Notes: generated by a model not told the origin, from the letters alone. Counted from the first letter of the stretch, positions 41,552 through 46,741 are shown. The stretch is 64,000 bases of DNA from Patescibacteria group bacterium (GCA_041649155.1 JBAZNP010000002.1:6640-70639), one strand, 5' to 3'. Program-made: numbers and translations.

Positions 41552-42937
41552 TTAGAACAGCTTCTTTTTTGCCAGTTTTTCTAAATAACTAATTCTCCAC
41601 GTGACATCATGAATAGCTTCTTTCTTAAGTGCTAAGTAGGCGTTGCGGGAAGTGTAGGTATAGTCCGATGGTGATTTCACTTCAAACAATGGCTTTCGCA
41701 AGTTGTTTTCTCGCGACATTATTCTAACCGGATACTCGTCAAATCCCAACTCCCAGAGGATTTGACCTTCTTCGGCCTCATCAAAAACAAGCATTTTAAG
41801 CAAATGATACTTTAATTTACTTTTTACCCGACGATTTGACTCGCTTTCAGGTTTAAAATATTTTATAGAATTTTTAAGCAACTCTCTTAAAGAATCAACT
41901 GGCGATAGAGCATTTTTCTTGATTCCATTCTGAACCACATTTAACCGAAGAAGCGAACTGTTTTCCAATCTTTCATGAACATTAAAAAATTTTAGCGCTT
42001 GATATACTTCCTCGTCACTTACAACAGAAAGGCCAGACGACAAATTATATACAACATCATTAATAAATGTGCCAAACCAATCGTAGAAAGAGTGCGTAAA
42101 AATCACTAGCATAATCATCAAACTTAGGAATACTAAGATTTCAAAATTCATTGTCACCCGAGAACCGAATAAAGCACCAATATAAATTAAAAGAATGAAT
42201 GCTACTACTATTGATTTATAGAAAAAGCTATTATCGAAAATGATTTTTTCAGATGGTAAAAACAAATGATAACGAACCATTGAGTATGTGAAAAGTAAAG
42301 CACCCAAGGTGATGGCCACCATAAAAATTATACCTGCAGGAGGGATAAGAACGTAATATGAAATCAAAGTAAATATACTAGCAATTGTATATACCGCCCC
42401 GCTCAATATGGGTAAAAAATACTTCTTAAGATTCTTTCTTGATTCATGCCAAAAATTTAGCGTGCCCATGAAGAAGCACCACCACACAAATAAGACAGTA
42501 GGAACCAGCAACGGCCCTGGCGCAAATCCATCAAATCTTTGATAGTTAGAAAATCGTATTATGTCCTCTTTTAAGAACACCCCCCCATGTAGAGCAACTC
42601 CATATAAAGCCACACTGATTATATATCCAATGACTAAAATTATATTTCTCTTTTTATTCTTCACACCACTAACCAATAAACTTGCATGATAATAAGCAAT
42701 TGGTGCAATAAAAAAGGGCCAATTGGTAAACTTTTGCCAAACAACATACTCGTGAAGAGACCTTGAATGTAATAATATTGGATCGGTAAAAGTAGAAAAA
42801 CTAAACCCAAACAAAAAGACAAAAGTGGTCCAAGAAAGCCAAGAAGAAGGATTTCTTGAAACAAGGTAAACGCTGACCCATATAATTATTAGGCCAATTA
42901 CTATCTCCGATATCTCGTAAAAATTTAATGCTAACAT
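41552..42937 (-). CDS. Multi-TM sensor-like membrane protein (paralog of the HK N-terminal sensor domain) with a cytoplasmic C-terminal domain
   Basis: About 9 TM helices; N-terminal segments align by eye with the N-terminus of the 44879 histidine kinase (GLIIxxxxxN...DP...W.K pattern); no kinase motifs. Confidence 0.55.
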   Translation of the reverse strand: MLALNFYEISEIVIGLIIIWVSVYLVSRNPSSWLSWTTFVFLFGFSFSTFTDPILLHSRSLHEYVVWQKFTNWPFFIAPIAYYHASLLVSGVKNKKRNIILVIGYIISVALYGVALHGGVFLKEDIIRFSNYQRFDGFAPGPLLVPTVLFVWWCFFMGTLNFWHESRKNLKKYFLPILSGAVYTIASIFTLISYYVLIPPAGIIFMVAITLGALLFTYSMVRYHLFLPSEKIIFDNSFFYKSIVVAFILLIYIGALFGSRVTMNFEILVFLSLMIMLVIFTHSFYDWFGTFINDVVYNLSSGLSVVSDEEVYQALKFFNVHERLENSSLLRLNVVQNGIKKNALSPVDSLRELLKNSIKYFKPESESNRRVKSKLKYHLLKMLVFDEAEEGQILWELGFDEYPVRIMSRENNLRKPLFEVKSPSDYTYTSRNAYLALKKEAIHDVTWRISYLEKLAKKKLF

Positions 42938-43126
42938 TGCATTCCTTTAATAAGCAACTCTCTAACATAGCATCCTACCATATAATAAAATTTTTTTCAC
43001 CTGTGACAAGTAAAATGTATTAAATTATATCGTTTTTCACATTAAGAAAAGATGAAGAAATTATAAATTAGCCATTTATTTTATCGTGGTTTATACACTG
43101 CTAGATTGATTAATAATCCGCTACCA

Positions 43127-43155
43127 TTGACATTTAAGCTCAGATGTGGTAATAT
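43127..43155 (+). promoter_or_regulatory. Sigma70-like promoter with extended -10 (TTGACA-17-TGgTAATAT)
   Basis: ttgaca at 43127-43132, a 17-nt spacer, tg-g-taatat at 43147-43155; about 100-nt leader to the 43255 CDS. Confidence 0.6.
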
Positions 43156-43254
43156 ATCACGTTTACTGTCGTCTTCGTTCTTGTTACAATCGTTATGAAG
43201 AATTACGAAGACATGGAAAATGAACCTTGATAATCTAGAAAGGAGTCGCCCCAA

Positions 43255-44083: not shown

Positions 44084-44804
44084 TCCTTGCGTAGCTGGCT
44101 GGTTCAAAGACCAGCATTTTGCTCGACCATATATTGAAATGATGAGAGCTTTTTCCAAAATGCTACCATTGGTTCCTAGAGGAGACTGGCTAGACATTGG
44201 CTGCGGCGCAGGAGAAGTGACCAAACTGCTTTGGGATAAATCGAGTGGAGCTATTTCAATCATCGGTATGGACGTTAATCCTGGAAATCGCAAGATCTTC
44301 ATGGAAAACACCAAGCTAATGAGACCCCTACCAGCCGACAGCAAAGTATCTTTCAAATCAGGTGATATTTGTCAGCCGTTAGATCTTGGCTACAATTGTC
44401 TCGATGGCGTCGTTTCGGGACTTTGTTTGTCTTACGCAGAGCACTACAACGGCGCCGAATGGACAGATGAAGCTTACCTTCGCATTTTCGCGGAGATCTA
44501 CCAGGCTTTAAAACCAGGTGGGAAGCTTGTCTTTTCCTCCAATGTGCCTGATCCCGATTTTACTCGGATCATGACCAGCTCATGGAGAGAAATTCTCTTT
44601 GGTGGAAGATTATTCCGCCTTACGAGAAACGGACTTGCAATGGTGAAATTCTCTAGATGGTTAAAGGAATGCGCCGAGATAGGACGCTTCCACTACCCAT
44701 CAATCGAGAAAATCATCACAATTCTCACTGATGTCGGCTTCAAGGACGTACAATACGAATTAACCTATGCCAAACAAGCATGGGTGATAGGATGCAATAA
44801 ATAA
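44061..44804 (+). CDS. Class I SAM-dependent methyltransferase
   Basis: Motif I WLDIGCGAGEVT, acidic-loop GMDVNP and motif IV region; start taken at MERNLWH; overlaps the upstream gene's end. Confidence 0.7.
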   Translation: MERNLWHDPCVAGWFKDQHFARPYIEMMRAFSKMLPLVPRGDWLDIGCGAGEVTKLLWDKSSGAISIIGMDVNPGNRKIFMENTKLMRPLPADSKVSFKSGDICQPLDLGYNCLDGVVSGLCLSYAEHYNGAEWTDEAYLRIFAEIYQALKPGGKLVFSSNVPDPDFTRIMTSSWREILFGGRLFRLTRNGLAMVKFSRWLKECAEIGRFHYPSIEKIITILTDVGFKDVQYELTYAKQAWVIGCNK

Positions 44805-44826
44805 GTGAGGGAAGTAAACTTGACCG

Positions 44827-44881
44827 ATCCCCCAAGAGAGTAGTAAACTAGAAATAGAACTACATATCTTGGGGGATTTTG
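44827..44881 (+). terminator. Possible terminator (11-bp stem, long 29-nt loop, T4)
   Basis: ATCCCCCAAGA ... TCTTGGGGGAT followed by TTTT. Confidence 0.3.
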
Positions 44882-46741
44882 CATATCAGAGGGGTTATGT
44901 TAATAAATGTATTATTGCTATCAGTTAGCATAGCATCCATAGGCCTTGGTTTGATCATCTTTTTGCGTAATACTAAAAATAACGCAAACTTATATTATGG
45001 TTTATTTTCAATGTTTCTGGCGGTCTGGTCATTTGGAATGTGGATGTATGCAAAAGACCCAATTGACTACAATAGAATTATTATTTGGTCCAAGATACTA
45101 CACTTTGCAGGTATATCGGTGGCAGTAAATTTACTGTTTTTCTCCCTTGCTTTTACTGTTAACAAGCTATTATCAAAAATTTACATTAAACTTATCCTAC
45201 TCACTCCGACGATCTTCCTCTTTTGGTTTACTCTCTTTACAAATAAAGTAATTTCTTCGGTTAATTTTTTGCCCGATAACAGACAATTAATATACGGTCC
45301 ATTCTATTTTATTTACTTTGGTATTTTTGTTTTATATATGTTTTTAGCACTAGTTGTATTAACAAAAAAATATCTTGTATCTAGCAGCGTATTAAAACAA
45401 CAATTAAAATATATTTGTCTTGGCATTGGCATTCCAAGTTCAATTGCGCTTGTGATCAACATGGTTCTGCCTGCATTGGGAAACTTCAGAATTGCATGGT
45501 CTGGTCCCATAGTTATTTTTGCAATTATCGCCTCGATAGGTTATGCGATAACAAAACATCATTTGTTTGAAATCAAAGTCATTGTCTCAGAAGTTAGCGT
45601 GGTGCTCCTTTTCTTCGCTGCTTTATTTGACCTCTTAACCTCAAAAACACCCAGCGAAATCACTGTAAGATTTATTGCTCTTGTGATTGTTATTTTTGGG
45701 GGATATTTGCTAATCAAAAGTATTCAGCATGAAATAAAACAGCGGCAAGATTTAGAAAAACTCGCCAAGAAGTTAGATCAGGCAAACAAGGACCTTGAAG
45801 AGCTTGATGAGACTAAGGACAATTTCTTATCCATGGCTTCACATGAACTCAATACTCCTATTGCCGCCATTTTGGGGTACTTATCTATGATTATTGAAGA
45901 GAAAACCTGTGGAAAACTCGATCCTCAACTAGCCAAATACTTAAATACCATATTTGCGTCGTCACAACGCTTGGCTGGTCTAGTTAAAGATCTTCTAAAC
46001 GTCTCAAGAATTGAGTCAAATCGAATTCATATAATCTATTCCGAAGCACAGATTGAAGACGTTATAGAACAATCGATTTCAGAAGTGGCGATCAAAGCAA
46101 AAGAAGTCGGGCATCAATTAAAATTCAAAAAGCCTGAGCGCAAACTTCCAAAAACATGGCTTGATGTGCCAAGAATAGTTGAGGTTATGATTAATCTAAT
46201 CGGCAACTCAGTAAAATACACAGATCCAGGTGGCAAGATTGAAGTTGCTTGTCATGCCGACGATAATAAAATAATAGTTTCAGTCGAAGACAATGGGCGC
46301 GGAATACCAAAAGACAAATATGATCATGTCTTCGAAAAATTCACTCAAGTTGATGTGCTGAAAGATGAAGTCAAAGGAACCGGTCTTGGCATGTTCATAT
46401 CGAAGAACTTGATAGCAATGCACAAGGGCAAGCTTTGGTTTAAGAGTTCTGTTGATAAAGACGATCACGGCACAACATTTTATTTCTCAATACCAATACT
46501 AAAAGAAAAGCCATTCGACCCACATGAAGGTGAAGAGGCTGTGATGTCGTCCGATAAACCAAAGCCAGAAGACGCAAAGTCAGCAGATACTGCTGCATTA
46601 AAACCATCAGAGACTAAGATGGAAAAGAAAGATACAGCGCCTGCAGAAAGCAAAGATAGTGCTCCAACACCCATTCCATCAAAAGATTCCCCACCAACAA
46701 CTGCCGCCGAAACTACATCTAATTTAAAGGCAAAAATCTAG
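44879..46741 (+). CDS. Sensor histidine kinase (8-TM sensor, HisKA, HATPase_c) with an S/P/T/A-rich C-terminal tail; no response regulator in the window
   Basis: H-box SMASHELNTPIAAILGY, N-box and G-boxes (DNGRGIP, GTGLGM). TTG start at 44879 or ATG at 44897. Confidence 0.85.
   Translation: MHIRGVMLINVLLLSVSIASIGLGLIIFLRNTKNNANLYYGLFSMFLAVWSFGMWMYAKDPIDYNRIIIWSKILHFAGISVAVNLLFFSLAFTVNKLLSKIYIKLILLTPTIFLFWFTLFTNKVISSVNFLPDNRQLIYGPFYFIYFGIFVLYMFLALVVLTKKYLVSSSVLKQQLKYICLGIGIPSSIALVINMVLPALGNFRIAWSGPIVIFAIIASIGYAITKHHLFEIKVIVSEVSVVLLFFAALFDLLTSKTPSEITVRFIALVIVIFGGYLLIKSIQHEIKQRQDLEKLAKKLDQANKDLEELDETKDNFLSMASHELNTPIAAILGYLSMIIEEKTCGKLDPQLAKYLNTIFASSQRLAGLVKDLLNVSRIESNRIHIIYSEAQIEDVIEQSISEVAIKAKEVGHQLKFKKPERKLPKTWLDVPRIVEVMINLIGNSVKYTDPGGKIEVACHADDNKIIVSVEDNGRGIPKDKYDHVFEKFTQVDVLKDEVKGTGLGMFISKNLIAMHKGKLWFKSSVDKDDHGTTFYFSIPILKEKPFDPHEGEEAVMSSDKPKPEDAKSADTAALKPSETKMEKKDTAPAESKDSAPTPIPSKDSPPTTAAETTSNLKAKI

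Follow-up and report, generated by a model that had tools for sequence, protein, structure and literature searches.

In Bacillus comQXPA, the signal-making genes are located directly upstream of a polytopic membrane histidine kinase gene and in the same orientation. These genes and the N-terminal membrane sensor of the kinase are variable, and the cytoplasmic kinase part is conserved. By analogy, staphylococcal agrBDCA is a comparable pherotype locus. In Ralstonia, phcB and phcS belong to one operon. The methyltransferase PhcB produces the quorum-sensing signal, methyl 3-hydroxymyristate/palmitate, and this fatty-acid methyl ester is sensed by the histidine kinase PhcS (PMC8578825, PMC11960443). 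HisKA_7TM (PF16927) is listed among the sensor domains of kinases from bacteria and archaea (PMC5847659, PMC6944256). No ligand and no linked enzyme is given for it in these two papers, which mention neither exchangeable enzyme cassettes nor a non-kinase version with a new C-terminal domain.

Here, we describe a locus of an uncultured member of the Patescibacteria with a layout that appears to resemble the "synthase plus receptor" loci of quorum sensing. It occupies positions 41552-46741 of a 64,000-nucleotide stretch (GCA_041649155.1 JBAZNP010000002.1:6640-70639), hereafter the window. The initial annotation placed five ORFs there, and all are present: a 461-aa polytopic membrane protein and, diverging from it, an 81-aa ORF, a hotdog protein, a methyltransferase and a histidine kinase. 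Region 43255-46741, containing the last four, probably forms an operon. These four genes had been said to overlap. Overlaps exist between the small ORF and the hotdog gene (17 nt) and between the hotdog and methyltransferase genes (23 nt, taking the 247-aa start at 44061 chosen by the gene callers). A 92-nt spacer, not an overlap, separates the methyltransferase stop from the most likely kinase start, ATG 44897 (614 aa), with orthologs beginning MLINVLL or MIINVLL.

Enzyme genes and intergenic regions

The promoter proposed upstream of the operon (43127..43155, + strand) is a consensus match only (TTGACA-17-TAATAT with TG, 10/12 matches). It is conserved in the orthologous spacer of the related locus L008. 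The site and the following ~100 nt are ~90% conserved between the two spacers, the remainder being ~50% identical. Interval 43162..43254 (+ strand) contains a second promoter-like site (TTTACT-17-TACAAT, 43162-43190) and a conserved leader. This leader carries an imperfect inverted repeat, GTCTTCGT...ACGAAGAC. Its fold is no better than that of shuffled sequences (z -0.9), and we therefore make no claim of RNA structure for it. On the other strand, a consensus scan shows a promoter-like site for the 461-aa gene (TTGTCA-16-TATTAT, 42982..43009, - strand), again a consensus match only and poorly conserved in L008.

A Shine-Dalgarno-like AAAGGAG lies ahead of the 81-aa ORF (43255..43500, + strand). 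In L008, the corresponding position holds a 76-aa ORF with 62% identity to it. No counterpart was found in locus L009, and no match in Pfam or NCBIfam. The ORF is a lineage-restricted accessory gene.

The 199-aa hotdog protein (43484..44083, + strand) had been described as FabZ-like. The fold assignment holds, with a Pfam FabA score just above the cut-off (24.4 bits versus 23). FabZ and FabA 3-hydroxyacyl-ACP dehydratases use a catalytic His and an acidic residue 14 residues downstream, Glu in FabZ and Asp in FabA. Alignment to Campylobacter jejuni FabZ (3d6x) shows that the protein shares their GH(F/M)PG.P..P motif and keeps the active-site His, in GHMPGYPILP. In contrast, a Trp takes the acidic position in the window protein and, without exception, in the 8 homologs read, and scores are far below the cut-offs of the NCBIfam FabZ equivalogs (26.4 versus 155 and 25 versus 113). 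Thus, the protein is not a canonical FabZ. Its family comprises only 9 clusters among 5.8e9 proteins. No other fab genes were seen near it.

The 247-aa protein (44061..44804, + strand) is, as annotated, a SAM-dependent methyltransferase, and its models place it in class I, with Methyltransf_11 (43.3 bits versus 21.2), Methyltransf_23 and Methyltransf_25 all above cut-offs. No specific NCBIfam equivalog applies, the best one, BioC, being far below its cut-off (39 versus 185). In every other locus of the hotdog family that was read, the methyltransferase gene directly follows the hotdog gene, except in L011 where two genes lie between them.

A conserved GC-rich hairpin followed by a short U run is located within the spacer between the methyltransferase and kinase genes (44826..44878, + strand). 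It is strong (dG -30.6 kcal/mol, z -4.0; 0/200 shuffles fold as well) and unique in the window. Equivalent hairpins with different middle-stem sequences are found in L008, L009 and L052. No match was found in Rfam. The hairpin may work as an attenuator, terminate transcription in part, or serve in processing or stability. A weak promoter-like site (44820-44849) overlaps it, and the two together may uncouple transcription of the kinase from that of the enzymes.

The histidine kinase and the divergent membrane protein

The 614-aa kinase (44897..46741, + strand) is composed of a sensor (residues ~1-285; 44897-45751), a HisKA and HATPase_c core (residues ~300-545) and a low-complexity tail. The sensor belongs to HisKA_7TM by its Pfam score (51.6 bits versus a gathering threshold of 28.6, residues 13-232 of the 620-aa reading). 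It displays ~7+2 hydrophobic helices instead of the eight transmembrane segments first proposed. HisKA (67.4 bits), HATPase_c (94.3 bits) and a visible SHELNTP H-box identify a class I two-component sensor histidine kinase.

As noted from the start, the window encodes no response regulator. A receiver HMM built from 3 sequences gave a best E of ~1 over all window ORFs of 60 aa or more, as compared to 1e-23 and 1e-29 for control receivers from L011 and L017. In addition, no Response_reg Pfam match is recorded at contig positions 25435-100599 (~75 kb), and no cognate regulator was thus found in either interval. In contrast, in the distant loci L011, L017 and L018 the gene right behind the kinase encodes a stand-alone receiver, so that being orphan is not inherent to the kinase family. 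The receivers found in relatives carry no DNA-binding domain.

In the 461-aa protein (41552..42937, - strand), a 7+2-helix, HisKA_7TM-like sensor (residues 1-283; 42089-42937) precedes an all-helical C-terminal domain (residues 284-461; 41555-42088) that is cytoplasmic and highly conserved. The AlphaFold2 model has a pLDDT of 83.6. The full protein matches nothing in Pfam or NCBIfam, HisKA_7TM being absent even at an E value of 10. Its family contains 112 clusters; those that bear a name belong to Patescibacteria-type MAGs, plus single records labelled Bathyarchaeia and Lentisphaeria.

The two sensors of the locus had been called visibly paralogous, one copy being a duplicate of the other. Pairwise comparison does not bear this out: the best BLASTP segment covers 30 aa (E 0.045, not significant), and the 461-aa profile against the single kinase sequence reaches a probability of only 3%. 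Homology finds support at the profile-profile level. hhalign aligns the N-terminus of the 461-aa protein with the kinase sensor profile over 213 collinear columns (93.9% probability, E 1.5e-7, 12% identity), and PF16927 directly matches 4 of 55 members of the 461-aa family (best E 5.3e-6). Distant proteins bearing the C-terminal domain, P0141 and P0146, score 53 and 49.5 bits with HisKA_7TM. The composition of membrane proteins can inflate scores of this kind. These data support a distant relationship of the two proteins within one sensor family rather than a recent duplication.

The C-terminal domain has 70 representatives in 1.84e9 proteins and is always C-terminal. Searches returned no Pfam or NCBIfam model, no PDB sequence and no Foldseek match. 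In distant members it stands behind HisKA_7TM in the output position, whether GAF is present or absent. We infer that it is a previously undescribed output domain.

Its position, its basic character (pI 9.1) and the fixed divergent placement of the 461-aa gene beside the operon raise the idea of a membrane-tethered one-component regulator that would bind the intergenic region with its C-terminal domain, control the operon and so replace the response regulator. The block ATTAAGAAAAGATGAA, identical in the intergenic regions of the window and L008, would suit this idea. However, searches matched no DNA-binding family or structure, HTH included, and the divergent spacer varies from 23 to >1,000 nt across loci. 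The sole enriched intergenic motif, ATTAAGAAA, occurs in 9/11 spacers, barely above shuffles (shuffle maximum 9 in 1/20 trials), with inconsistent position and strand. We consider such a regulator distinctly unlikely.

Exchange of enzymes and sensor in related loci

The gene order was compared in relatives. In every hotdog-family locus whose contig extends that far, the hotdog gene is followed by the methyltransferase and a HisKA_7TM kinase. This is the case in the window, L008, L009/L010 and L052, and in an expanded form in L011 (Omnitrophica); L053 and L054 end inside the methyltransferase gene. Identities to the window for hotdog protein, methyltransferase and kinase are 87/74/80% in L008 and 47/56/61% in L009/L010. 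Such recurrence indicates that the genes are not a chance neighbourhood.

A kinase ortholog lies upstream of the 461-aa family gene, on the opposite strand, in 13 of the 14 loci with at least ~2.5 kb of sequence upstream of that gene. In the single exception, L031, an IS1595 transposase takes its place. The enzymes between the two genes change from locus to locus. UbiA is found in L005, L007, L012, L026, L033 and L048, and in the truncated loci L016, L023 and L024. A weak terpene-synthase-like protein is encoded in L004 and L035, ThiF plus an unknown protein in L013, ThiF plus a FeeM N-acyl-amino-acid synthase in L015, and a Methyltransf_20-like protein in L017/18. Where a function can be guessed, most of these enzymes point to lipophilic products. 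This type of locus is seen almost only in Patescibacteria so far.

Identity matrices and sliding windows reveal that the kinase is a mosaic, with a crossover at residues 265-290. In L009, the sensor shares 60% identity with that of the window and 26-29% with those of L007, L012 and L033, whereas the core is 80-82% identical to the cores of the latter three and only 65% to that of the window. Reciprocally, the cores of L013 and L026 share 75-76% identity with the window core, and their sensors 24-25% with the window sensor. The exonuclease gene in the flank sides with the core and not with the sensor. Thus, the catalytic core follows genome relatedness and the 7TM sensor follows the enzyme cassette, in a comparison made between species-level lineages, not inside one species, and where clear incongruence comes mainly from one lineage (L009) and from the reciprocal contrasts between the window and L013/L026. 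The UbiA loci combine a hypervariable enzyme (25-34% identity) and an equally hypervariable sensor (29-38%) with a core that is kept (57-83%). Part of the low sensor identity reflects the fast evolution that transmembrane regions undergo anyway.

Enzyme cassette and sensor half exchanged together on a conserved core are what would be expected if the sensor recognises the product of the enzymes. Our preferred reading, to which we give slightly less than an even chance, is as follows. The operon enzymes would make or modify a small lipophilic molecule, here plausibly a methylated, fatty-acyl-derived compound. The kinase sensor would bind the product (or substrate) of its co-inherited enzymes within the membrane. 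From the core, the signal would pass to a receiver whose gene lies elsewhere and which, like those of L011 and L017, probably has a single domain. The 461-aa protein would act as another receptor, with a sensor of that same family and with the conserved cytoplasmic domain replacing the kinase as output. The N-termini of the 461-aa protein and its L008 partner are only 26% identical, against 74-91% over the operon, and this sensor does not track the cassette. The link of the 461-aa protein to the cassette is therefore positional only, and the protein probably reads a different cue while feeding the same pathway. Ligand identity, the direction of signalling and the role of the C-terminal domain are all predictions from sequence and gene context. 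Fatty-acid synthesis is generally regarded as missing from Patescibacteria, so that a fatty-acyl substrate would lack an evident source, which counts against this reading.

The initial annotation had viewed the locus as a lipid or small-molecule modification module under the control of a membrane sensor. The coupling of a membrane sensor to lipophilic chemistry is retained here. Control of the enzymes by the sensor is unsupported, and the joint exchange of the enzymes with the sensor half points away from it. Under a related scenario, the kinase, and perhaps the 461-aa protein, would sense an unrelated external or membrane-stress signal and switch on the hotdog protein and methyltransferase to remodel lipids or a small molecule. 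Lipid-type enzymes, sensors wholly embedded in the membrane and a divergent arrangement with conserved promoter and leader would suit it. Nevertheless, joint exchange with an enzyme cassette is not expected of a sensor whose cue is unrelated to it. Moreover, the kinase gene is downstream of the enzymes, not apart from them, no transcription-factor-type regulator is encoded nearby and the receivers of relatives lack DNA-binding domains. This scenario seems unlikely to us.

Finally, the genes may be functionally unrelated. Compact Patescibacteria genomes line up unrelated genes in one direction, and a recombination hot spot would simply lie in front of the kinase. The very heterogeneous enzymes at this site, the IS element in L031, and the hairpin spacer with its possible internal promoter before the kinase go in this direction. 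However, the hotdog-methyltransferase-kinase order persists at hotdog identities as low as 41-47% and extends to another phylum, and the recombination boundary lies inside the kinase gene, at the sensor/core junction, not between genes. We regard this explanation as very unlikely.

Likeness to quorum-sensing loci

Returning to product sensing by the kinase, the analogy with pherotype loci can be followed further. As in comQXPA, genes assumed to be signal-making adjoin a polytopic membrane kinase gene in the same orientation, and a variable block spans these genes and the sensor, next to a conserved core. By analogy, a sensor that tracks its cassette mirrors the specificity polymorphism of agr and comQXP and suggests recognition of a lipophilic product of the cassette. 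The loci could serve cell-cell (or symbiont-host) signalling in Patescibacteria, through exchangeable lipophilic-signal enzymes and a matching 7TM sensor half, plus a second 7TM receptor that varies on its own and has an undescribed cytoplasmic output. We see this wider reading as rather unlikely. If true, the signals of these modules would be prenylated, terpenoid, N-acyl amino acid or methylated acyl compounds, and the variants of such a pherotype system would differ in signal chemistry, not only in peptide sequence.

The differences from comQXPA and agr are several. A peptide precursor is not established here, the 81-aa ORF being absent from L009, and the secreted signal is putative. There is no adjacent DNA-binding response regulator. 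The cassettes vary in enzyme class, not merely in allele, and the locus has an extra divergent receptor whose output domain is new. With respect to the Ralstonia system, the set of hotdog protein, methyltransferase and kinase could work like Phc. However, the response regulators PhcR and PhcQ and the regulator PhcA have no counterpart seen here, and we know of no hotdog partner in Phc. The kinase of the window is of the HisKA (PF00512) and HisKA_7TM type, whereas ComP is modelled with PF07730. As a further likeness to comQXPA, many of the Patescibacteria loci compared here have an upstream prenyltransferase, a UbiA that is not of the ComQ family, or a terpene-synthase-like protein.

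Genes and signals of the divergent locus

The window derives from a 101.9 kb metagenomic contig whose proteins are named "Patescibacteria group bacterium" at NCBI. All five ORFs of the initial annotation are present. The 461-aa membrane protein is encoded on the minus strand (41552-42937). The plus strand carries an 81-aa ORF preceded by a good Shine-Dalgarno sequence (43255-43500), a 199-aa hotdog protein (43484-44083), a 247-aa methyltransferase (44061-44804, the start being the gene callers' choice) and a 614-aa histidine kinase (44897-46741). Because kinase orthologs begin with MLINVLL or MIINVLL, the ATG at 44897 is favoured as the start over the TTG at 44879.

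Pfam identifies HisKA_7TM, HisKA and HATPase_c domains in the kinase, and Methyltransf_11, _23 and _25 in the methyltransferase. The 461-aa and 81-aa proteins have no Pfam match, even at E 10. NCBIfam contributes only sub-threshold FabZ and BioC similarities. The 199-aa protein is a borderline FabA match (24.4 bits for a cut-off of 23). It retains the FabZ His motif, but a tryptophan, invariant in 8 of 8 homologs, occupies the position of the catalytic glutamate. Therefore, it is not a canonical dehydratase. NCBI calls a 147-aa protein from internal Met53 (P0117; 43484-44083, plus strand). The longer call looks correct, since the 199-aa form is kept in eight homologs and its added N-terminus has a FabZ-like 'LIPEKR..FF' segment. 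At its C-terminal end (46532-46738, plus strand), the kinase has a low-complexity tail, about 70 residues long, with many Pro, Ser, Thr, Lys and Ala residues. L008, one of the related loci (labelled L), shares this tail; most orthologs lack it, their alignments ending near residue 550.

The promoter proposed at 43127-43155 (TTGACA-17-TAATAT) is a true 10/12 match, by consensus only. The stretch that comprises this site, a second promoter-like site and the leader is about 90% conserved in the orthologous L008 spacer, the rest of which is only about 50% identical to the window. The leader does not fold better than shuffled sequences. A conserved operator was also sought in the divergent spacers, but the best k-mer was not clearly above shuffles and its placement was inconsistent.

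The operon genes had been described as overlapping. This holds for the first three, but the kinase is set off by a 92-nt spacer. Within the spacer, a stable hairpin (44826-44878; -30.6 kcal/mol, z -4.0) precedes a short run of U residues. L008, L009 and L052 have equivalent hairpins in the corresponding position, whose middle-stem sequences differ. The hairpin is present in a single copy within the window, so that a repeat element with a second copy was rejected. Neither the leader nor this spacer matches an Rfam family at E up to 1. Because the hairpin may weaken read-through to the kinase gene or flank an internal promoter, we go no further than considering co-transcription of the enzyme genes with the kinase plausible.

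Exchange of enzymes and kinase sensors among related loci

Genes were mapped in 40-odd related loci using tblastn and Pfam. A gene of the 461-aa family diverges from a kinase-ended operon in 13 of the 14 loci with enough upstream sequence (the window, L004, L005, L007, L008, L012, L013, L015, L017, L018, L026, L033 and L048). In L031, the one exception, an IS1595 transposase occupies the site of the kinase operon. The enzyme cassette between the two genes varies by locus. The small ORF, hotdog and methyltransferase genes are found in the window and L008. A UbiA prenyltransferase is found in L005, L007, L012, L026, L033 and L048, as well as in the truncated L016, L023 and L024. The other cassettes encode a weak terpene-synthase-like protein (L004, L035), ThiF with an unknown protein (L013), ThiF with a FeeM-type N-acyl-amino-acid synthase (L015) or a Methyltransf_20-like protein (L017/L018).

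With 9 clusters, the hotdog family is very small. Its gene is directly followed by a methyltransferase in all loci read except L011, from Omnitrophica, in which the pair is separated by two genes. A HisKA_7TM kinase comes next wherever the contig goes on, L011 included. The hotdog-methyltransferase-kinase order is thus kept in the hotdog loci whose contigs reach the kinase. A search with the kinase sensor by itself returned just 2 proteins, one of which is the truncated kinase of L052, adjoining hotdog and methyltransferase genes.

The kinase itself is a mosaic. Its core (residues 300-545, covering HisKA and HATPase_c) is 57-83% identical among Patescibacteria loci and groups them in agreement with the neighbouring exonuclease gene (window-L013 88%, L009-L012 75%). 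The sensor (residues 1-280) instead groups loci by cassette. Between L009 and the window, which both have hotdog and methyltransferase genes, the sensors are 60% and the cores 65% identical. Between L009 and the UbiA loci L007, L012 and L033, identity is 26-29% in the sensor but 80-82% in the core. The same holds for the window compared with L013 (ThiF and unknown protein) and L026 (UbiA), with 24-25% in the sensor and 75-76% in the core. Sliding windows place the switch point at residues 265-290, at the end of the membrane region. In the UbiA loci, enzyme (25-34%) and sensor (29-38%) are both hypervariable but the core is not. UbiA and sensor divergence correlate positively, though short of significance (rho 0.48, n = 10). 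Since the sensor follows the cassette while the core follows the exonuclease gene, the cassette and the 5' half of the kinase gene, which codes for the sensor, have been swapped as one unit. Read conservatively, the mosaic kinase still provides a clean case of module exchange at the sensor/core junction.

The simplest reading of a sensor that travels with enzymes is that it detects their product or substrate. The kinase sensor is buried in the membrane, and the cassettes whose chemistry can be guessed mostly point to lipophilic molecules. In the initial annotation, a membrane sensor was proposed to control a lipid-modification operon. Such control is possible, but it leaves the co-exchange of sensor and enzymes unexplained. 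The comQXPA and agr systems share one pattern of variation. In comQXPA, the variable parts are the isoprenyl transferase ComQ, ComX and the ComP membrane domain; ComA and the cytoplasmic domain of ComP are conserved (PMC4008528). As at the Patescibacteria loci, a variable enzyme and membrane sensor are thus combined with a conserved kinase part. The layout observed here, with a methyltransferase adjoining the kinase, also recalls Ralstonia PhcB/PhcS, where a methyltransferase produces a fatty-acid methyl ester signal (PMC8578825, PMC11960443). Because the sensor is co-exchanged with the enzymes, is buried in the membrane and follows a comQXPA-like pattern, we favour a ligand-matched enzyme-sensor module, giving it slightly less than an even chance. 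The molecule would either be secreted as a signal or stay in the cell as a membrane species.

As noted initially, the window contains no response regulator: a small receiver HMM finds nothing there (control receivers, 1e-23 to 1e-29). Response_reg is also absent from the Pfam records for contig positions 25435-100599. In L011, L017 and L018, the gene immediately after the kinase encodes a stand-alone receiver.

The divergent 461-aa family

The 461-aa family comprises 112 clusters. The few with a named source are mostly from Patescibacteria-type MAGs, with single records labelled Bathyarchaeia and Lentisphaeria. The N-terminus is highly variable (15-60% identity). Identity reaches 50-70% in residues 284-461, the C-domain, where about 30 positions are invariant.

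The membrane domains of this protein and of the kinase had been called visibly paralogous. Pairwise BLASTP is not significant (best segment 30 residues, E 0.045), nor is a comparison of the family profile with the kinase sequence by itself (3% probability). A profile of 55 family N-termini does match a profile of seven kinase orthologs using hhalign (93.9% probability, E 1.5e-7), over 213 collinear columns with 12% identity spanning the entire 7TM region. A few family members and distant C-domain proteins match PF16927 directly, up to 53 bits, and both sensors have about 7+2 hydrophobic helices. Homology is therefore supported at the profile level, but not a direct pairwise or recent relationship. 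Because profile-profile homology and direct PF16927 matches are obtained without pairwise significance, we read the two sensors as old, divergent relatives within one sensor family. The 461-aa sensor does not co-vary with the cassette.

An exhaustive profile search of 1.84 billion proteins found only 70 representatives of the C-domain. It is always C-terminal, behind HisKA_7TM, HisKA_7TM-GAF or GAF, in the slot where kinases bear their catalytic part. Its AF2 model is confident (pLDDT 82.6, pTM 0.77) and all-helical. Pfam, NCBIfam, PDB sequence profiles and Foldseek against the PDB gave no match for the C-domain (Foldseek best E 2.6). The full-length model retrieved only weak generic GPCR-like 7TM similarities (E above 4e-3, TM-score 0.3-0.5). 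The C-terminal helix with an invariant His (EAIHD) was considered as a DHp/H-box relative and rejected, since the domain shows no similarity to the kinase core (hhalign, 0.1% probability). The domain is basic (pI 9.1). Conceivably, the 461-aa protein might act as a regulator tethered to the membrane.

Some genomes have two or three tandem paralogs (L007 10001-14062; L026 3463-7528; L029 33-1792). One paralog type of about 400-412 aa shares the C-domain alone and has a different N-terminus. Short fragments with only the C-domain also exist (L004 11296-11568).

Known systems and surrounding genes

Patescibacteria are mostly uncultured episymbionts with small genomes. HisKA_7TM kinases, class I methyltransferases and the hotdog fold are already known individually. 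The exchangeable enzyme-plus-sensor module, its fixed divergent partner, whose output domain is unmatched, and the near-restriction of both to Patescibacteria appear previously undescribed in the literature searched, which gave no account of such a locus and no description of how Patescibacteria sense partners or kin. If the locus works as inferred, heterologous expression of matched cassette-sensor pairs could reveal signals and receptors. The locus would also suggest a ligand class for HisKA_7TM sensors, none being named in the literature searched, and add a new output domain to those of membrane receptors.

Directly downstream of the 461-aa gene, the minus strand (38320-41292) encodes a TIGR04434 B12-binding/radical-SAM protein (599 bits), a B3/4-domain protein and a methyltransferase-like protein. 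L013 has the same trio behind its 461-aa homolog (69, 79 and 60% identity), and L005, L007 and L008 do not. The trio could be part of the unit or independent of it. A second B12-binding radical-SAM gene is located 5 kb from the kinase (51542-52939, minus strand). A small HATPase_c_2 protein, anti-sigma-factor-kinase-like (28 bits), is encoded 0.8 kb downstream of the kinase (47558-47998, minus strand). Large RHS/YD-repeat toxin genes lie a few kb from the kinase unit in L007 (1-4036) and L009 (1-5782). A c-di-GMP-I riboswitch (56289-56383, minus strand; 54.5 bits for a gathering score of 35) is located upstream of two Pfam-unmatched genes, 55648-56181 (177 aa) and 53632-55647 (671 aa). In L011, the hotdog homolog is fused to PilZ, a c-di-GMP-binding domain.
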